Source of the DNA: Phycisphaerae bacterium
GTDB taxonomy: Bacteria > Planctomycetota > Phycisphaerae > UBA1845
Assembly: GCA_028282665.1 (NCBI GenBank)
Contig: JANQHN010000102.1
Coordinates: 1-50,219 of the forward strand
DNA length: 50,219 bases
Direction: 5' to 3'
Shown here: piece by piece, positions 35,440 to 46,669 of the stretch
How positions within the stretch are numbered: the stretch's first letter is position 1
Layout of the letters: the number at the start of each line of letters is the position of its first letter
Notes under the pieces: generated by a model
Database searches by the model: none
Told to the model about the DNA's origin: nothing
The model's input: the letters and a program-made list of their open reading frames with translations, nothing else
Made by a program: the position numbers and the translations under genes

Positions 35440-36264
35440 ATGTTCGCACGAAAGCAACACGGGGTCACGCTCGCAGTCGGATTGGGCCTGTTGTTCACGA
35501 CTACGTTCGCGGAGCGAGCTTCCGGTCAATACCATTACGATGATCATCGCAGCTATCGGTCGTACTACGATGAAATCGACGCTCTTTCGACCGGCACCAG
35601 CTATATGCCGACGCAACGTATATCCTGCGACCGAGACCCGTATCATCCGAGCAAGGCGGTATACTACGATGAGTCGAGATACGCAAACCAAGTCTATGGC
35701 GAACCCGTTTACGTCAACAGCACTGCCTGCCAACCCGTAGTGAGAACTAACTATTGTTCGGAGCCGGTCCACCGCACTACGTATCGACGGCGCACTGTCA
35801 AACAGCATCGGGAGGTCCGACGAACGCGCGTTTACGCACCGCATCGCTCCTATGCAGTTACGCCGAGTGTTCACGTAACCTACAGAGGACCAAATGTGCG
35901 GATGATCAAGCCCCGTCGTGAAGTCAGAGTGGTTACTCCCAGGCGTTCTGCGCGACTTGTCGTTCCCAGCCATCGCAGAAGCCACTACAGGCCTTACGAA
36001 GAACTGGTTTTCTCGCCGAGGCATCGAGTGCCGGTCCGCGAGGTCAAGCATCGCCCGTACCGCTCCTTGCGACTCAAGACGCACGATCGGCCGCACTGGC
36101 GCAGCAATCAATATCGTGGGCACAAACATTGGCGTGTCGCCCCGTCCTACAAGGTACGCGTTAACCGTTACGAACCTCGACGAGGCGTCAGTGTGGGTGT
36201 GCACTACCACGATGGATCCGGACGTTACCGCAATGGAGGGATTTCGGTCCGCTACAGGCGATAG
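35440..36264 (+). CDS. Secreted Arg/His/Tyr/Val-rich low-complexity protein
   Basis: AAGGAGG RBS; signal peptide; strongly basic R/H/Y-rich C-terminal two-thirds. Confidence 0.75.
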   Translation: MFARKQHGVTLAVGLGLLFTTTFAERASGQYHYDDHRSYRSYYDEIDALSTGTSYMPTQRISCDRDPYHPSKAVYYDESRYANQVYGEPVYVNSTACQPVVRTNYCSEPVHRTTYRRRTVKQHREVRRTRVYAPHRSYAVTPSVHVTYRGPNVRMIKPRREVRVVTPRRSARLVVPSHRRSHYRPYEELVFSPRHRVPVREVKHRPYRSLRLKTHDRPHWRSNQYRGHKHWRVAPSYKVRVNRYEPRRGVSVGVHYHDGSGRYRNGGISVRYRR

Positions 36265-38695: not shown

Positions 38696-39496
38696 TCACG
38701 GAATGTCTTCCAGATTGCTGTCGAGGGTGTCGGTGATGAGCATGTGTCCCGGCTCGTGAGTGATCGCGAAGTCCGGTTTTGCATTTACCAACGCGACCAT
38801 CGGCGTTACGCCACACGCCCAAAATACGCACACTTCATCCTGACGAATCTCTACCGGATCGCCGAAGTCCGGCCGATCGATGTCGCCGATACCGATTTCC
38901 GCAGGATCGCCAATGTGAATCGGCGCACCATGGGCAGCCTCGTAGCGGGCAGTGATTCGGCGGGCTACTTTAGCCTGATCCACAGTCATCGGACGCATCG
39001 ACACCACGAGCGGTCCGCCAAACCGCCCCCCCGCAGTCGTATCGATACCGGTCTTGTACATAGGAACGTTCTTGTGCTCTTCGACGTGACGAATCGGAAT
39101 CCCCTCGCGAAGTAAGGCTGATTCAAACGTAAAAGAACAACCAATCAGAAACGATACCAAATCTCCCCGCCACCATCGCTTTAAATCAGTGGGGCGATCG
39201 ACGCATTCGCCATCTTTCAACACACGGTAGCGAGGCAGGTCCGTTCGCAGATCAATGCCTGAGCCTAACTTCCGGAGTACGTAGGCCCCCGGTTCCGTTC
39301 GCTCGAGCAATGGGCATGGTTTTGAGTTTCGCTCGCAAAAGAGAGCAAAGTCGTTTGCGCAGGATTGCGGTAGAACAACGAGGTTCACCTGGACGAATCC
39401 AGGTGCCAACCCGGTGGTGTGACCTGTGTGCTGAGCATTGCGACAACTCAGCCGAAGCTCTGCGGCCGTCGCGGTCATCGCTGCTCCCTTTCCCAT
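38696..39496 (-). CDS. DUF1445/YcsI-family putative hydro-lyase (D-glutamate cyclase-related)
   Basis: TTGLAPGFVQVNL, DFALFCERNSKPCPLL, DLRTDLPRYRV, FLIGCSFTFE, NVPMYKT, GPLVVSMRP, HGAPIHIGDP, FWACGVTP, ITHEPGHMLITD. Confidence 0.93.
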   Translation of the reverse strand: MGKGAAMTATAAELRLSCRNAQHTGHTTGLAPGFVQVNLVVLPQSCANDFALFCERNSKPCPLLERTEPGAYVLRKLGSGIDLRTDLPRYRVLKDGECVDRPTDLKRWWRGDLVSFLIGCSFTFESALLREGIPIRHVEEHKNVPMYKTGIDTTAGGRFGGPLVVSMRPMTVDQAKVARRITARYEAAHGAPIHIGDPAEIGIGDIDRPDFGDPVEIRQDEVCVFWACGVTPMVALVNAKPDFAITHEPGHMLITDTLDSNLEDIP

Positions 39497-39512: not shown

Positions 39513-41276
39513 CTATACCCATTCGCCCCGCCGTTCTATCATCAAGCGATCCAGGTTGGTTGAGATAGCCTGCGCGTCAATACCGCATAGTCGTGCAATT
39601 AACACCGCCGCAAGGAGATTCTCCGGAAACGCAGGGTCTGCGCTGCCGATGTGCTCCACCGTTCCCTGCAAGTTCGTAAATATTTCACCCCGTTCGAGCC
39701 ATGCCCCACGGCGCATCGGCAGTTCCTCGGAAACGAACATGGTACGACCACGGTGCTTCTCCGCGAGCGCACGCACACGGTGATCGTCATGGGAGAGAAT
39801 CAGGATGTCGTCCGGATGGTGATTCATGAATACGCGACTCTTGATTCGGGCGTATTCCTCCAGCGTCCGGTGTCGATCGAGATGGTGATCGAAGAGATTC
39901 AAAATGACTGCGATGTGCGTGCGAAACTGCACCACTGTCTCCAATTGAAAGCTCGATACCGCCAGCGCAATCGGGTCGTCGCTCGATTCGCTCAACAATA
40001 ACTCCGCGAAGGGTTTTCCTTTGTTCCCGCCTATCGTTAATGGTTTTTTGGACAGTTGAAAAAGAGATTCGAGCGCAAGGCACGTCGACCGCTTCCCAAC
40101 CGAACCGGTAATCCCAATCAAAGGCCTATCGCACAATTGAAAAGCCACTTCAAGTGCGCTGACGACGGGAATACCCAATCGGTGTAACTCAAATCGAACG
40201 GACGCGTCAGCCGGTACACCGGGCGACGCAATAACCAAGCAGCAGCCGGCAAGTCTTCCGATCGTATGCCCACCGACTTCGATGTCGGCGAATCGATCTG
40301 CATCGTAAATTTCAACAACCGCACTGTCCGAAATGACCACGCGATGGCCGAGATGCAACATCAACTCCGCCGTCGCTTGACCGGTTTCTCCGTAACCGAG
40401 AATTCCGACTTCGATGGTTGACGAATCTCGATCGCCTTGTTGCAGGAGATTTGGCAAAGGCGCAATTTGCCTGCGAATGCTTTCGAGCATGCGGATGCTT
40501 TGATCCAGCGACAGCCCATCGACGGTCGGCATCGCTCGACCGGTCACACCATCCACAGCCCCGCCGTCGCGCACAATCGTTTCGATGTCACGAGCAGCTT
40601 GATCTGCCGTCGGTAGCAGATCGCGGCCGACCAGGACAGAAAGCGCTCCCGCCAAGCCATACGCCCCCCAGTTGGATACGCCCGCGATGATACAGAAGTC
40701 TGTCTCGACCGCGCAAGCAATCTCCAGGCCGTGATCGATTCGATCCATCGCGGCGGAAAACATCTTACCCATACCGATCTCGTTTCCGCCGTCGCCGATT
40801 CCGATGGTGATCACGCCCTCATGCTCCGCCTGGATAAACAGCGCATCGAGCGGGCAGGTATGGCTCGATATGTCATCGCCGCGCATGTTGCGATAATGCC
40901 CGTCAGCGGATCGGCCGGCGCGTTCGATGGCAACTAAGTGCGTGGGTTGGCGTTGGGCAATGTAGTTTTCAGGCTCGATCAGCGGATCCAATCCGAGTGA
41001 GCGAAAAAGCGGAGCATTTTCTTCGTCGGTGATGTAGTCGACTTCGATCCCCAAGGCAGTGAGCGCGTCGCCTACAACTTTCGCACCGGGCGGACCATCG
41101 GTTTCTCCACGTTTAGCGCTTGCAATGTAATAACCACTGACAATGCCGACCCGTTTCGCAAGCCGTAGTGAAAGGGCGGCAAGCCTCAGCTGGTCTGATC
41201 GCAATAGCGCAAAAATGTTCCGCCTGCCTGGATCGCGCGCGATAGTATTCTCAATGGAGGCGATGCGCGTGTTCAT
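39513..41276 (-). CDS. Fusion of DUF4392 (glutamate-cyclase-type) domain and truncated, degenerate MurD-like ligase domains 1-2
   Basis: N-half: DPGRRNI, ETDGPPGA, VAIERAGRSADGHYRNMRG, TIGIGDGGNEIGMG, AGVSNWGAYGL, GAVDG. C-half: GILGYGETG, VIASPGVP, IGITGSVGKRST, GGNKG, AVSSFQLE, LNLFDHHLDRH, YARIKSRVF, ENLLAA. Confidence 0.88.
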   Translation of the reverse strand: MNTRIASIENTIARDPGRRNIFALLRSDQLRLAALSLRLAKRVGIVSGYYIASAKRGETDGPPGAKVVGDALTALGIEVDYITDEENAPLFRSLGLDPLIEPENYIAQRQPTHLVAIERAGRSADGHYRNMRGDDISSHTCPLDALFIQAEHEGVITIGIGDGGNEIGMGKMFSAAMDRIDHGLEIACAVETDFCIIAGVSNWGAYGLAGALSVLVGRDLLPTADQAARDIETIVRDGGAVDGVTGRAMPTVDGLSLDQSIRMLESIRRQIAPLPNLLQQGDRDSSTIEVGILGYGETGQATAELMLHLGHRVVISDSAVVEIYDADRFADIEVGGHTIGRLAGCCLVIASPGVPADASVRFELHRLGIPVVSALEVAFQLCDRPLIGITGSVGKRSTCLALESLFQLSKKPLTIGGNKGKPFAELLLSESSDDPIALAVSSFQLETVVQFRTHIAVILNLFDHHLDRHRTLEEYARIKSRVFMNHHPDDILILSHDDHRVRALAEKHRGRTMFVSEELPMRRGAWLERGEIFTNLQGTVEHIGSADPAFPENLLAAVLIARLCGIDAQAISTNLDRLMIERRGEWV

Positions 41277-44200
41277 GCGCGAGACTCCTCTCCATCGGAT
41301 AGTTTACCCCATCCTCCGCCGCCCGGCGTTTCAATTGTCAATACATCGCCGATTTGCACATCAACCGAGACGATCGGCGGAAGAATTTCGACTTTGCCCG
41401 TTAAATTGCGCACTAAAGTGTTTCTGCCAACTGATCCATCATTTCCACCGTGCAATCCGTACGGCCTCTTTAAACGGCGCTGACTCAAAATGGATACTTG
41501 CAGTGAACGCAGAAATTCGATCTCACGCACAACTCCATTTCCGCCACGAAAACGACCCGCGCCTCCCGAGCCTCGCCGAATCTCGAAACGCACAAGGCGA
41601 ACGGGATAGCGTGATTCGAACACTTCCGGATCAGTAAGACGCGTATTGGTCATGTGGGTATGGACAGCATCGGCGCCATCGAACCCGTCGCCCGCGCCCG
41701 CCCCGCCACAGATCGTCTCGTAGTACCCGAACTGCTCATCGCCCATCAGCAGGTTATTCATCGTCCCCTGACTTGCGGCGACAACACCCAGTGCACCGAA
41801 CACGGCGTCCACTATGCGTTGCGAGGTCTCCACGTTGCCACCCGCAACCGCAGGGCACTTTGCGGGATCGTTATCAGACAGCGGATTCAGGAAACAGGTT
41901 GGCAAAACGATTTCCACGGGAGCGAGTACGCCGCTGTTTAGCGGAATGTCCTCAGCAATCAGGCATCGCAGGCAATACAACACCGCGCTGGACACGATCG
42001 CGCGATTGGCGTTGAGGTTGCCGTGCAAGACTTCACCGGTTCCCGTGAAATCAACTCGCGCTTCGTCGTCGTGAATATCGACAGTCACACACAGCGGCGT
42101 GCCATCGTCGAGACGATCTTCAAACATCCGCACACCATCGGGCAAAATGCGCAGGGCGGCGCGCATCTTCGCCTCTGCCGCTCCGCGTATGTGACCCATG
42201 TATGCGAGAACCGCGTTCGATCCGTACCGCTCGACCATCCGCGTCAACTCACGAATACCCGTCTGATTCGCAGCGACTTGGGCAGCGATGTCGGCGATGT
42301 TCTCTTCGACCGACCGGGTTGGATGCGGCCCTGCCGTAAGCAAAGACCGCAACTCAGCCTCTCTCGGACGACCTTCGTGCAAATAGGGAAACGCACGAAT
42401 CACCACGCCTTCTTCGGCAAGCGATGTCGAATCAGGAGGCATGGAACCGGGCATCTTACCGCCGATCTCTGCGTGATGAGCGCGACTGGCGACAAAGAAC
42501 AACAACCTTCCGCCACCCTTCTCATACACGGGCGTCACGACAGTGACATCATTCAAGTGCGATCCGCCGCGGTAAGGGTCGTTCGTCACGTACACATCGC
42601 CGGGATGGAAGGACTCCACATCCTCAATGAGTGCTTTGACACAATCGCTCATGCTTCCCAAATGCACGGGAATGTGCGGCGCGTTGACCACCAGTTCGCC
42701 ATTGGGGGTAAAGATCGCGCAGGAAAAATCGAGGCGTTCTTTCACGTTGGTGGATAGGGCACTGCGGCGTAATGCGGAGCCCATTTGTTCGGCGATGGAA
42801 GCGAATTGATTGTTAAACAATTCCAACTGCACGGGATCAACCGACTCATCGATCCGCTCGCGATTCGCACTCGTAGACGTATCCTCCAATAGGAGATCGC
42901 CATTTTCCTGCACGGTCGCACACCAATCCGGTTCGATCACGACGGTTGAAGTGCCTTCGGTAATAACTGCGGGACCTGCAACTGTGTGATTCGCGTACAA
43001 TTCAGAACGGGCGTATATGGGCGTGGGAACCGCGTTTCCCGCAAACGTAACCTTCGCATGGTCTACAGGATGGGGTGGATTCTCGGATCGTGCGAGCACG
43101 AGAGTCGGCGCTTCATCCGCGGCGGCGACGAGTTCCACACGCAACATACGCACCTCTACCGCTCGTTTCTCGTGGATGTGGCCGAAGAACTGACGGTGTT
43201 TTGCTTCGAATTCCCGGCGGAGTTGTGAAACATCGCCCCAGTGCACCGCGATCAGCGACGATTGCCCTGCGTAACAAAGTTCCGCAAAGCGAACCGCGGG
43301 TTCGAGTCGCCCGTCCGACACACCCTGCTCAATCATCGATTGCGTAGCGTCCCGTTCGAGTTCGACAAAGATACCCTCAAGATCGGTCAATGACTCTACC
43401 GTTGGCTTATGCACCTTCGGTAATTCACATTGCACGCTACGCTCAACGACGCGTTTCACGGAGGCGGCACCAATCCCGAGGGCACTTAGAACGCCAGCGA
43501 ACGGGCTGAGCAGAACGCATTTTATGCCCAGCATACGCGCAATTGCGCAGGCGTGTTGCCCACCGGCTCCGCCGAAACTTGTCAGCACGTAATCACGAAG
43601 GTCATACCCTCTTGCAATGGAGATTTCCTTGATTGGTGCGGCCATGTTGGCATTGGCGATGCGCAAAAATCCTTTTGCAAGCTCCGTACGCGACAAAGCC
43701 TGGACACCTGCATCCTCCATTTCCGATCGAATCTCATCGAGCTTCCGGCCAATCACCATGGAATCAAGTGGAAAAGGAAACAACTTAGCCGGTACGCGGC
43801 CAAGAAATACGTTCATGTCCGTCACAGTCAACGGCCCGCCTCGCCCGTAGCAGGCGGGTCCGGGGTCCGCACCGGCACTTTCGGGACCCACTGCGAGCTT
43901 TTGGCCGTCGAATCGACACACGCTCCCACCACCCGCCGCAACAGTTTCGATTGCGAGCATCGGCGTCATGATTCGCACGCCCGCTTTCACCGTTTCATGT
44001 TGGTATTCAAATCCCCCACTGGAAGTTCCCTCAACTGACAGGTCGATGCGCGAGACGTCCGTGCTCGTTCCGCCCATGTCAAACCCGATCGCGCGATCGA
44101 AACCCGCTTCTTTCGTAACATGCGCACAGCCGACCACGCCGCCGGCCGGCCCGCTCAAGATCGTGTCCCTACCACACGCAACGCTTGCGTCGACAAGTCC

Positions 44201-45136
44201 GCCGTTGCTGGTCATCAAAAAGAACCGCGCTTCAGGCACCGATCGTCGGATCGATGCAACGTAAGATTGCAGCACGGGGCTCAAGTATGCGTCCGCCACC
44301 GTGGTATCACCGCGAGACACAATACGTTCCAACCGCAAGACTTGAGACGAGAGTGAGACCTGCGCGAAACTCACTTCTTTCGCAATCTGCCCCAATACTC
44401 GTTCGTGAGTCGGGTTCACATAACTGTGGAGTAATGCAATCGCGACGGCCTCGAAGCCCTCTTCACGCAAACGGGTTAATCCTTTGCGGGCTTCAGCTTC
44501 ATCCAATGCAACCAATACCGAACCGTCCGCCGCCAATCGCTCGTTGATCTCGAGCACGCCTGTCGCCAGTTCGTCTCGTTTCTTGATGTGCGAATCGAAC
44601 AGTCGCGGTCGATCTTGGTATCCAATGCGAAGCACGTCGGCAAAACCTCGCGTCGTGACAAACGCCGTTTTTGCACCTTTGCGTTCCAGCAGTGCGTTTG
44701 TCGCTCGCGTTGTCCCCAGTCGAATATCAACCTCGCCGATCGGATCCGTCAGTTTTAGTCCCATCAGATAGCGGATCGCGGTGATGGGGGCTTCCTCGCC
44801 ACTGACAAGTTCGTAACCCGAACCAGGTGTGATGGCGTGGGCAAACGGAGCTTCAAGTTCCAATACGCCCTCATCGGCATGGAACGCCGCCACACGTGCA
44901 AAGACCGAATCCGTACCAAGCAATCTGAAGGTATATCCTTGCCAGTGCCTAGCTGGATCGCCAACGCGCGTCGGATCGACAATACGCCGCTCACTCGATC
45001 CTTCCTCGACCACACCGCGAATCGCCCCGCTGCTAAGAAGTTTGTACGTCAATACCCGACCGCCAGGAGCCCGTGCGACCACGTCGGTAAACGTACCGCC
45101 CACGTCTATGAAGAATTGCCAGTTTGATTCACTCAT
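41273..45136 (-). CDS. oplA: ATP-dependent 5-oxoprolinase / hydantoinase, fused HyuA+HyuB type
   Basis: [149 protein letters not shown]. Confidence 0.92.
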
Positions 45137-45256
45137 AGCCCATGAGGATAACCGCTCGCCGGGGTGGTGAACAATCGCCCGAACCAACAGCAACGTTGAC
45201 TCATTGATAAAGTACTTACACTCCGAATCCTGGCAATTCACCATTCGCGAGGTAAC

Positions 45257-46669
45257 ATGGATTGCATGAGTAACGGACCCACCAATCAGGATGGTGTTGT
45301 GACCGGAATGGACACGGCAGTTCCTTGCCCCGCGCATGGATTCACGGCGGCATTGACCGCGCTGCGCCTAGGGCGGTTCGCTCCAAGAAAGGCTGGAATG
45401 ATAGCGCAGCATGCGCCGCTTGGGATCTGGCTCACTATCTCGCTTAGTATTGCCTTGCTCTGCGGCGTCACGATTCTTATTACAGCCATGTTATGTACCG
45501 CGCTGACCAAAACTGCGAGTGGTTACACGACCTACCACACTTTAGTGATAAGCTGGAATCTTGCTACCATCTCCGATATCTGGGCCGATTGGCACGCTGG
45601 CGGTCCAGTCGGTCCGGCCGAGTTCATTCTTGGCGGAACGACGCTTGGTATTTTAGCCGTTGTGATATGCGCAGCCTTGCTTCACGTCAGCACGACGCGA
45701 TCTGGTGGTAGCTTCATGGGGGCGTACGTCGCGAGTTTGAAAGCCTGCTGTGCCTGCCTGAGCCTCGCGACCGCTTTCATCTTCATCCTGTGCTTCGGAC
45801 ATGGCTGGATCTGGGCAATCGAAAGCTATTCCCATGTCGACGAGTTGTTAGGCTTCCTATTCGTGACTTTGCATATGCTGCTAACGGCGCTGTTGCTAAA
45901 TCAGTTTGCGCGGGCATGTTTCGGAGCGCGTCGTACTGTGCCAAGAACAGAAAATCCACCCTGGTGCGAGCGATGCGGGTACGACCTGACTCACCACGTG
46001 CAAGGGGGGCGCTGTTCGGAATGCGGCGAATCGATCGACTGGTCTCTCACAGAAAACCACAAAAGAATGGATTCGCCCTGGAAGCAACAACAGGGCATTA
46101 TGGAACTTGAGAACACCTCGCGGTTTGCAGTTACAGGCTTAAGCAATTTCTACTCGCGACTGCGGGTCTACGGGAAAGATCACGACTATCGCGTTTTACA
46201 GTTCAGCCTGTGGACCTACATTGCGATCGGGATCGGCTCCGCCATTTGGACGTTCGCCTTCCTGGTGTTTGTGGATCCCGGAGATCCGCCTGGTTGGGTA
46301 CTTGTCTGCCTGCCTACTATGGCGTCCTTTGCCTGCCCGCTTGCGGGATGGTGCATGCACAGGGCAACCGTTCTGGCCGTCATGTTCTTCAACTATATGC
46401 ATCATCGACTGCCTAATCCGGCGGTCGCGTGGCCCGTCATCGCGTACGAAACTTCGTACCTGTGGATGTACTGCTTGTTCAACGGCAGTTACCTGCTAAG
46501 TGTTGTAATCTTCGACGACACGGCGGAGTACTTCCTTGGCAAAATAGTGCCCGGATTAGGCATGCCTTGGGGCGTGTTAATATTTTTCGCCGGCAACGCT
46601 GCCCTGTATGCGACCGGCTGCTGGAGACTAAACAAGGCACTCGGCGAAGTCCGATGGGCGAATTTCTGA
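45257..46669 (+). CDS. Polytopic membrane protein with central zinc ribbon
   Basis: Two blocks of ~4 TM segments flanking CERCGYDLTHHVQGGRCSECG. Confidence 0.75.
   Translation: MDCMSNGPTNQDGVVTGMDTAVPCPAHGFTAALTALRLGRFAPRKAGMIAQHAPLGIWLTISLSIALLCGVTILITAMLCTALTKTASGYTTYHTLVISWNLATISDIWADWHAGGPVGPAEFILGGTTLGILAVVICAALLHVSTTRSGGSFMGAYVASLKACCACLSLATAFIFILCFGHGWIWAIESYSHVDELLGFLFVTLHMLLTALLLNQFARACFGARRTVPRTENPPWCERCGYDLTHHVQGGRCSECGESIDWSLTENHKRMDSPWKQQQGIMELENTSRFAVTGLSNFYSRLRVYGKDHDYRVLQFSLWTYIAIGIGSAIWTFAFLVFVDPGDPPGWVLVCLPTMASFACPLAGWCMHRATVLAVMFFNYMHHRLPNPAVAWPVIAYETSYLWMYCLFNGSYLLSVVIFDDTAEYFLGKIVPGLGMPWGVLIFFAGNAALYATGCWRLNKALGEVRWANF

Follow-up and report, generated by a model that had tools for sequence, protein, structure and literature searches.

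Mammalian D-glutamate cyclase is described as a protein composed of a DUF1445 and a DUF4392 domain (PMC5339696, PMC5132392), and its mouse representative as converting D-glutamate (D-Glu) to 5-oxo-D-proline (PMC5339696). Here we report on a bacterial gene in which a DUF4392 module is fused to the first two domains of the peptidoglycan ligase MurD, and which is followed by a DUF1445 gene. The gene lies on a contig of 50,219 nucleotides from a Phycisphaerae bacterium (assembly GCA_028282665.1, contig JANQHN010000102.1), and this whole stretch of analyzed DNA is called the window below. The animal protein (DGLUCY; mouse 9030617O03Rik, human C14orf159) shares the families DUF1445 and DUF4392 with the window, whereas the window, known from its genes alone, has them on separate genes, with the MurD-derived module between them and an ATP-dependent oxoprolinase-like gene linked to them. 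DUF4392 is C-terminal in the account given of the animal protein (PMC5132392), whereas bacterial single-chain relatives of the fusion have the order DUF4392-MurD'-DUF1445, where MurD' denotes the MurD-derived module.

The DUF4392 fold has been solved in TON_0340 of Thermococcus onnurineus (structures 4dwz, 5gkx and 5gl2-4), a stand-alone protein of ~268 amino acids (aa), whereas the DUF4392 module of the window is fused. TON_0340 is described as having a small cavity in which six invariant carboxylates bind two Mn or Mg ions, and as a weak Mn-dependent phosphatase on AMP, with no physiological substrate assigned (PMC5132392). For MurD, the contacts given in the literature are Leu15, Thr16, Asp35, Thr36, Arg37, Gly73 and Asn138 for UDP-MurNAc-L-Ala (UMA), Gly114-Thr117, Asn271, Arg302 and Asp317 for ADP, and Thr321, Lys348, Ser415, Leu416 and Phe422 for D-Glu, with the Mg ions handled by a Glu and a His (PMC9780078); carbamoylated Lys198 is said to stabilize Mg (PMC4816537). 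Domains 1 and 2 of MurD have the same fold as the MurD-derived module and share its signature motifs. However, the fusion lacks domain 3, has Arg in place of the Walker-A Ser/Thr, Ala in place of Glu157 and, across the family, mostly Ala in place of Asp182; it is attached to DUF4392, scores below the murD cut-off and is not the MurD of the cell.

Two further systems are relevant to the genes around the fusion. In Bacillus subtilis, the DUF1445 gene ycsI is placed within the 5-oxoprolinase operon pxpA-ycsG-ycsI-pxpB-pxpC (PMC10448178), and the B. subtilis control genome scored for PF07286. As in the window, DUF1445 is linked there to an ATP-dependent 5-oxoprolinase; however, PxpABC is non-homologous to the HyuA/HyuB enzyme of the window, and B. 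subtilis has neither DUF4392, for which no control genome scored, nor the MurD-derived module. The glutamate racemase MurI of Escherichia coli is reportedly regulated by UDP-MurNAc-L-Ala, as the title of Doublet et al. 1994 has it. An enzyme of the D-Glu pool controlled by a precursor that consumes D-Glu would be a precedent, by analogy, for the logic proposed below, although MurI belongs to an unrelated protein family and its effector binds the racemase itself.

A DUF4392 module fused to a MurD-derived module

The fusion gene and its parts are as follows.

39513..41276, minus strand: DUF4392-MurD (domains 1-2) fusion gene, an open reading frame (ORF) of 587 aa
40473..41255, minus strand: DUF4392 / TON_0340-type di-metal domain, aa 8-268 (PF14336)
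40413..40472, minus strand: poorly conserved linker, aa 269-288 (alignment of 120 relatives and AlphaFold2 pLDDT)
39549..40412, minus strand: MurD-derived module, aa 289-576, domains 1 and 2 only (TIGR01087)

PF14336 (GLUCM-like_C, 'D-glutamate cyclase-like, C-terminal', formerly DUF4392) matched aa 8-268 with all of its profile positions (1-291 of 291; E 1.1e-74; 252 bits against a gathering cut-off of 27.9), which places the first module in that family. Mur_ligase_M (PF08245) matched aa 389-521 (E 3.2e-16), and two MurD N-terminal Pfam models matched aa 290-372, both under the cut-off, while Mur_ligase_C (PF02875) had no match in the 587-aa protein. In the NCBIfam murD model TIGR01087, aa 290-576 corresponded to profile positions 2-299 of 441, with a score of 163.1 bits that lies under the family cut-off of 211.95. 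The match ends at position 299, precisely where domain 2 of MurD gives way to domain 3, and domain 3 is thus absent. After its TAG stop, the fusion is followed by 16 nt and then by the ATG of the DUF1445 gene, so no frameshifted remainder of domain 3 is present. A preliminary description of this DNA, made from the sequence without database searches, had proposed this same architecture and the loss of domain 3 without a remnant, with the next gene 16 nt away, and the profile matches and the spacing of the genes agree with it.

The AlphaFold2 model of the fusion (79 aligned relatives), a check that the preliminary description had recommended, showed a confident fold, with a mean predicted local distance difference test score (pLDDT) of 90.9 and a predicted template modeling score (pTM) of 0.90; pLDDT fell below 50 at aa 281-284 alone, in the linker. 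The best Foldseek matches of this model were MurD 3lk7 and TON_0340. Against MurD 3lk7 of S. agalactiae, E was 4.9e-22 with a root-mean-square deviation (rmsd) of 2.5 Å over 307 columns, and against the TON_0340 structures 4fc5 and 5gl2 the template modeling score normalized to the chain was 0.88 with an rmsd of 2.0-2.5 Å, as expected for the same fold.

The MurD-derived module was compared with E. coli MurD (1e0d) by alignment of the fusion, and residue frequencies were taken from a MAFFT alignment of 120 relatives. These relatives are the best 120 of 5286 proteins with E ≤ 0.001 among 8000 candidates scored in a search of 5.8 billion clustered proteins. At the positions of the presumed catalytic metal ligands of MurD (the Walker-A Ser/Thr and Glu157), the fusion has Arg396 and Ala439 instead. 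Arg396, the residue after the P-loop Lys, was Arg in 119 of the 120 relatives, and the Glu157 position was likewise Ala in 119. The Asp182 position, His464 in the fusion, was Ala in most relatives (104), with Glu in 11 and His in two. Going by the alignment, Lys115, Asn138, His183, Lys198 and Asn271 of MurD are all present, as Lys395, Asn418, His465, Lys479 and Asn553. The first four of these were invariant in the relatives (120/120), as was Ser-Pro-Gly 351-353, which includes the counterpart of Gly73 (Gly353). In the SSFQLE motif, Ser441-Ser442 and Leu445 were found in 120/120 and the remaining three positions were conserved in 118-119. The counterpart of Asp35 (Asp317 of the fusion) was Asp in 111 and Glu in nine relatives, and Asn553 was Asn in 105 and Asp in 10. 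The MurD motifs kept are GxGxxG...D, SPG, G-x-x-G-K, GGN-G, SSFQLE, HLDRH and K-x-R-[IV]-F. All five D-Glu contacts of MurD and its ADP contacts Arg302 and Asp317 fall in the absent domain 3.

True MurDs served as the control set (n = 119), taken from the representatives P0244-P0383 among the 150 best matches listed in an HMMER scan of 1.84 billion proteins; those of 400-520 aa were kept, and shorter and longer representatives were dropped. Glu157, Lys115, Asn138, His183 and Lys198 were each present in 119/119 controls and Asp182 in 107/119, and the residue after the P-loop Lys was Ser or Thr in 115/119 (77 Thr, 38 Ser), the other four having Gly. The fusion family appears to have taken oxygen ligands away and added a positive charge at one metal site, leaving the rest of the pocket intact. 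The MurD-derived module probably cannot perform canonical ligation, because it has neither the domain that binds D-Glu nor the presumed ligands of one of the catalytic metals.

The preliminary description had judged the module to be probably not a ligase, and the loss of domain 3 in 120/120 relatives, together with the Ala and Arg replacements in 119/120 at positions that the controls keep, bears this out. Its reading of Glu157 as Ala and its identification of the P-loop Lys, His183 and Lys198 were confirmed by the 1e0d alignment. Its statement that the P-loop is kept holds for the invariant Lys395 but not for the next residue, which has changed from Ser/Thr to Arg, and the 'HH' motif that it pointed out is correct for the sequence of the window but is not a family trait, position 464 being mostly Ala. 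The same genome carries the separate intact murD for which it had suggested looking, a full-length copy on another contig (G000:C147:4553-5860; 300.8 bits, over the cut-off, profile positions 2-440) with the canonical motifs GKST and LEMS and 28% identity to aa 320-479 of the fusion in a local alignment. The fusion is therefore not the peptidoglycan ligase of the cell.

The DUF4392 module aligned with TON_0340 4dwz at E 3.4e-41, with 35-38% identity to TON_0340 in the structural alignment. Residues E58, D60, E118, D162, E166 and D253 of the fusion aligned with E59, D61, E115, D157, E161 and D246 of TON_0340, the six carboxylates shared by the two proteins. Five of them (E58, D60, E118, D162 and D253) were invariant among the relatives and E166 was present in 119/120. 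Judged from these aligned residues, the module is an intact TON_0340-type domain with a complete six-carboxylate metal site.

Conservation and patchy distribution of the fusion

All 120 relatives matched both PF14336 and PF08245, and none matched PF02875. They were 51-63% identical to the fusion. Where a source name exists, it is 'DUF4392 domain-containing protein' or 'glutamate cyclase domain-containing protein', with Planctomycetota and Phycisphaerae assemblies as the source. Looking for the architecture in other genomes, as the preliminary description had advised, thus showed the change of Glu to Ala in 119/120 and the loss of domain 3 in 120/120. After clustering at 50% identity, the fusion family was reduced to ~10 representatives, with true MurDs next at ~35% identity. 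A branch at 43% identity (P0239) also has GKRS and LAVSS. In the diverged fusion of genome G104 (P0243), the P-loop Lys, His183 and Lys198 are lost as well and the module is retained; since this protein is a singleton in the database, its extra losses are not readable as a conserved state.

Conservation along the fusion was similar in its two modules and low between them. The mean frequency of the commonest residue was 0.79 in DUF4392 (105/261 positions at least 95% conserved), 0.75 in MurD domain 1 (23/92 positions) and 0.73 in MurD domain 2 (66/195 positions), against 0.47 in the linker (1/20 positions). The MurD part, with 89/287 such positions overall, does not appear to be decaying; it is nearly as conserved as DUF4392, which points to strong purifying selection. 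The preliminary description had counted neutral evolution of the MurD part among the outcomes that would overturn its reading, and the comparison with the linker speaks against it.

We examined a genome sample with one genome per species, consisting of 25 genomes of the window's family (that of the window included) and of 16 genomes from the remaining families of the order. Eight of the 25 family genomes carried the full fusion (7/24 besides that of the window; two of the eight copies are cut by contig ends), against 0/16 genomes from the other families. In an even sample of the phylum (301 genomes), a match spanning both modules occurred in two, the genome of the window and G104 (46% identity). 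Metagenome contigs provided five further full-length fusions and one truncated copy; they were found among the 80 loci of a scan whose patterns were mostly DUF4392, hence their small number. A scan of genome contigs with the single fusion protein gave four loci, all DUF4392-only. The fusion is thus a patchily distributed accessory gene and not a chimera. That it might be a one-off or an assembly chimera, another outcome that the preliminary description had named, does not hold with 120 relatives, seven family genomes and five metagenome contigs sharing the architecture.

As a separate observation, one long metagenome contig (L106, 6001-8053) has a weak MurD-like match (25% identity) upstream of its DUF4392 match, which could be a reverse arrangement of the two modules.

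A three-gene operon with DUF1445 and an oxoprolinase-like gene

The fusion gene is the middle gene of a three-gene operon, formed by a HyuA/HyuB oxoprolinase-like ATPase gene, the fusion and a DUF1445 gene. The two neighbors are as follows.

38696..39496, minus strand: DUF1445 / UPF0317 'putative hydro-lyase' (D-glutamate cyclase family; PF07286, PRK05463)
41273..45337, minus strand: fused HyuA/HyuB ATP-dependent lactam hydrolase, OPLAH-like (PF05378, PF01968, PF02538)

The product of the DUF1445 gene scored 216 bits for PF07286 and 388 bits for NCBIfam PRK05463 (cut-off 324), and its solved relatives are 3db9 and 2pif (E ~1e-77). As far as genes can tell, the adjacent DUF1445 and DUF4392 modules provide the two domains of D-glutamate cyclase. 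The upstream gene, whose stop codon overlaps the start of the fusion (ATGA), encodes PF05378, PF01968 and PF02538 on one chain (660 bits for PF02538), and this fused HyuA-HyuB architecture of ~1290 aa is that of the OPLAH type. Among solved structures, its top match is 7hk5, a fused N-methylhydantoinase (E 4.5e-138, aligned over 1150 residues), and the second is 6yra, whose chain is labeled '5-oxoprolinase'. Homologues of the upstream gene occur in fusions with DUF1445 at 46-48% identity, and for some of them the source name is 5-oxoprolinase. The true start of the HyuA/HyuB gene is probably Met68 at 45136, giving ~1287 aa, because the alignments of its relatives begin at residue 68-72. The 67-aa extension (45136-45337) of the 1354-aa ORF overlaps a divergent 470-aa ORF on the plus strand (45257-46669) without a Pfam match. 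The preliminary description had noted the 16-bp gap correctly and had overlooked the identities of both neighbors, DUF1445 next to the fusion and the HyuA/HyuB oxoprolinase-type gene before it.

The gene neighborhood was recorded from 11 fusion loci with flanks. The oxoprolinase-like gene was directly upstream of the fusion in 5/5 family loci having upstream sequence, and DUF1445 was directly downstream in 4/6 family loci and elsewhere in the genome in G308 and G315. The three-gene order was repeated on three metagenome contigs, and the oxoprolinase-like gene stood upstream on a fourth, truncated contig; a short metagenome contig (L057) had neither partner beside the fusion. A complex prediction for the fusion and the DUF1445 protein gave a score of 0.00 without controls, which weighs neither way.

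A search for multi-domain DUF1445 proteins gave 320 matches among 7860 candidates of 475-1512 aa. Among the best 120 of these 320, six clusters had DUF4392, MurD' and DUF1445 on a single chain, 62 had DUF1445 with DUF4392, 20 (1403-1505 aa) had DUF1445 with HyuA/HyuB in both domain orders, and seven had DUF1445 with PxpB/PxpC-type domains (PF02626, PF02682). The four modules of the operon travel together and are fused in some relatives, and DUF1445 has links to ATP-dependent 5-oxoprolinases of two unrelated kinds (P0169-P0235). Since both kinds are linked to DUF1445, 5-oxoproline is most likely the shared metabolite. To our knowledge, this double link has not been described. In the single-chain relatives, DUF1445 comes after the MurD module with a linker of 30-70 aa between them. 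The preliminary description had suggested that DUF4392 replaces the lost D-Glu domain, an idea that does not fit this order, in which DUF1445 and not DUF4392 follows the MurD module.

DUF1445 also follows the fusion in its occurrence. Among the 41 related genomes, it was found in nine, namely the eight fusion genomes and one 76%-complete genome, and DUF4392 was found in exactly the eight fusion genomes. All 19 genomes of the phylum sample with a DUF4392 match also carry DUF1445.

Several side observations concern these genes. Further fusion partners of DUF1445 were PALP (threonine dehydratase-like) and MGMT domains. DUF1445 was directly upstream of the DUF4392-only gene in 24/25 metagenome loci that have the two side by side (L087-L135), the animal order; the order DUF4392-DUF1445 was seen in L114 and in the bacterial proteins P0123, P0132 and P0171, so both orders exist. 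In G308 (L054, G308:C82, 8021-9505 and 9502-10353), the DUF1445 gene, away from the fusion, shares 4 nt with the gene of a CitMHS_2 (putative citrate/carboxylate) transporter, which may serve to take up the substrate. In G104 (L053, G104:C180, 5394-7175 and 8090-9880), the diverged fusion lies ~1 kb from a divergently oriented gene with an N-acetylmuramoyl-L-alanine amidase domain and a lytic-transglycosylase-like DPBB domain; this genome has its DUF1445 on a different contig, within an open frame of 1515 aa, a length that matches the HyuA/HyuB-DUF1445 fusions. Elsewhere in the window, a 274-aa ORF of doubtful coding status (35440-36264, plus strand), which long ORFs of the opposite strand overlap, has short repeated motifs, a very high content of Arg, Tyr, His and Val, and no Pfam match. 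Rfam and tRNA scans of the window gave no matches, and a promoter and terminator scan of it gave no excess over chance.

The glutamate racemase MurI (TIGR00067) was not found in the genome of the window (88% complete) or in any of the eight fusion genomes. It was present in six other family genomes and never coincided with the fusion in the family, and 11/25 family genomes had neither. In the phylum sample, MurI was not found in 249/301 genomes; DUF1445 was present in 26/301, two of which also have MurI, and 225 have neither. A D-amino-acid-aminotransferase-like (Dat-like) gene occurred in 41/41 related genomes, at ~250 bits in most family members, below the cut-off of 277; that of the window's genome scored 251 bits (C236:3927-4742). 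In this group, transamination may be the source of D-Glu. We rejected the idea that the operon replaces MurI, since genomes with neither MurI nor DUF1445 (225/301) leave no complementarity in the phylum, nor is there any in the family, and the Dat-like gene is present in all 41 genomes.

Candidate roles of the MurD-derived module

The reading that we favor, though we rate it slightly below even, is that the MurD-derived module is a ligand-binding regulatory or adaptor module in a D-Glu/5-oxoproline context. The operon would then be a bacterial, expanded counterpart of the animal D-glutamate cyclase (DUF1445 and DUF4392) that works with an ATP-dependent 5-oxoprolinase, and it would handle the D-Glu/5-oxoproline pair. 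The module would bind UDP-MurNAc-L-Ala (or the product that carries D-Glu), a nucleotide, or both, with no two-metal phosphoryl transfer and with Arg396 in the position of Mg. Ligand binding would adjust the activity both of DUF4392, on the same chain, and of the partner DUF1445, and D-Glu would not be cyclized away while the precursor that needs it accumulates. Glutamate cyclization is thermodynamically favored, which is the reason why 5-oxoprolinases spend ATP; left unregulated, a D-Glu cyclase would therefore deplete a metabolite needed for the cell wall. A sensor role for UDP-MurNAc-peptide or ATP is plausible and fits the pattern of residues kept and lost. A more specific version, in which a metal-free Mur receptor switches a D-Glu buffer (a cyclase plus an ATP-driven, ring-reopening oxoprolinase) and the pool tracks wall demand in racemase-less planctomycetes, seems rather doubtful to us.

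Several observations weigh against a regulatory module. Its proposed ligand is deduced from the kept residues alone, and the uracil contacts Thr36 and Arg37 of E. coli MurD lack conserved counterparts in the relatives, position 318 being variable; these two positions vary among true MurDs too, e.g., 3lk7. His183 and Lys198, which serve the second catalytic Mg in MurD, are invariant and would also fit residual catalysis. The ligation of the first metal (Mg1) by Ser116 (the Walker-A Ser/Thr) and Glu157 is presumed, from Walker-A/B logic and MurD structures. Since the best solved relative of the upstream enzyme is an N-methylhydantoinase, its 5-oxoproline substrate follows only from the fusions and the source names. 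One metagenome contig with a relative of 43-47% identity (L059) has neither partner within 6 kb. In 48/80 metagenome DUF4392 loci, no DUF1445, oxoprolinase-like gene or MurD' was found in the fetched flanks, many of these loci being short, and such DUF4392 genes without operon partners imply that DUF4392 has a function outside this operon. Lastly, the AlphaFold2 model of a triple fusion (P0055; pLDDT 92.8, pTM 0.74) has a disordered linker at 581-597, with no fixed docking of DUF1445.

The main rival, which we consider fairly unlikely, is that the module is still an enzyme, one that uses ATP and a single Mg at the His183/Lys198 site with Arg396 in place of the other Mg. It would phosphorylate a carboxylate or lactam oxygen of D-Glu, 5-oxo-D-proline or UDP-MurNAc-peptide, and either DUF1445, as the D-Glu-binding protein, or DUF4392, with its phosphatase-like di-Mn site, would stand in for domain 3. 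The invariance of K395, H465, K479, N418 and the SSFQLE motif is what an enzyme would show, DUF1445 follows the module in the six single-chain clusters, and the oxoprolinase-like enzyme of the operon depends on ATP too. The weak Mn-dependent phosphatase activity described for TON_0340 (PMC5132392) makes a pairing of kinase and phosphatase thinkable. However, both presumed Mg1 ligands are replaced in 119/120 relatives, whereas Glu157 is kept in 119/119 true MurDs, and Arg302 and Asp317, listed among the ADP contacts (PMC9780078), are gone with domain 3. The mouse D-Glu cyclization assay, as described, needs no ATP (PMC5339696). Furthermore, G104/P0243 keeps the module after losing the P-loop Lys, His183 and Lys198, although it is a singleton.

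G104/P0243 can also be cited for an inert scaffold, spacer or oligomerization domain that joins DUF4392, DUF1445 and the oxoprolinase-like enzyme and binds no ligand, as its fold is retained despite the loss of nearly all catalytic residues; the predicted pTM of 0.90 likewise suggests rigid packing of the module against DUF4392. A mere scaffold would not be expected to hold the P-loop Lys, Asn138, His183, Lys198 and SSFQLE invariant and to share specific Arg and Ala swaps across 51-63% identity, and we regard this explanation as improbable.

Far less credible is a racemase-independent route to D-Glu, in which L-Glu is converted to 5-oxoproline and then to D-Glu, which is handed to UDP-MurNAc-L-Ala on the MurD-like module. 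The absence of MurI from the matches in the eight fusion genomes and its presence in six other family genomes would suit such a route, but 225/301 phylum genomes and 11/25 family genomes have neither system, the Dat-like gene in 41/41 genomes offers another source of D-Glu, and the ligase chemistry appears to be disabled. An artifact, either a chimera of the assembly or a murD pseudogene in decay that is read through from the DUF4392 gene, can practically be set aside given the architecture in 120 clusters from many independent assemblies, in seven family genomes and in five metagenome contigs, the signs of strong purifying selection and the confidently predicted fold.

The domain families and the sequences were already public under generic names. 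The preliminary description knew of no account of the fusion, and a full-text literature search, which left subscription journals and supplements uncovered, found none of the architecture or of the altered active site. What is new is a conserved, metal-stripped MurD module placed between the halves of a D-glutamate cyclase and next to an oxoprolinase.

Among the Mur ligases, which are both textbook enzymes and drug targets, a conserved MurD derivative that has kept its substrate pocket and swapped both ligands of one metal, one of them for Arg, would be a clear natural pseudo-ligase and a ready-made probe of MurD ligand binding. DUF1445 is labeled D-glutamate cyclase solely by extension from the mouse enzyme, and its fusions with DUF4392, with two kinds of 5-oxoprolinase and with the MurD module give a testable pathway context for both DUF1445 and DUF4392. 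If the metal-free receptor proposed above were true, DUF4392 would gain a first physiological role and DUF1445 would be linked to 5-oxoprolinases in general. The pathway context is also relevant to how bacteria whose wall requires D-glutamate keep it from being cyclized.

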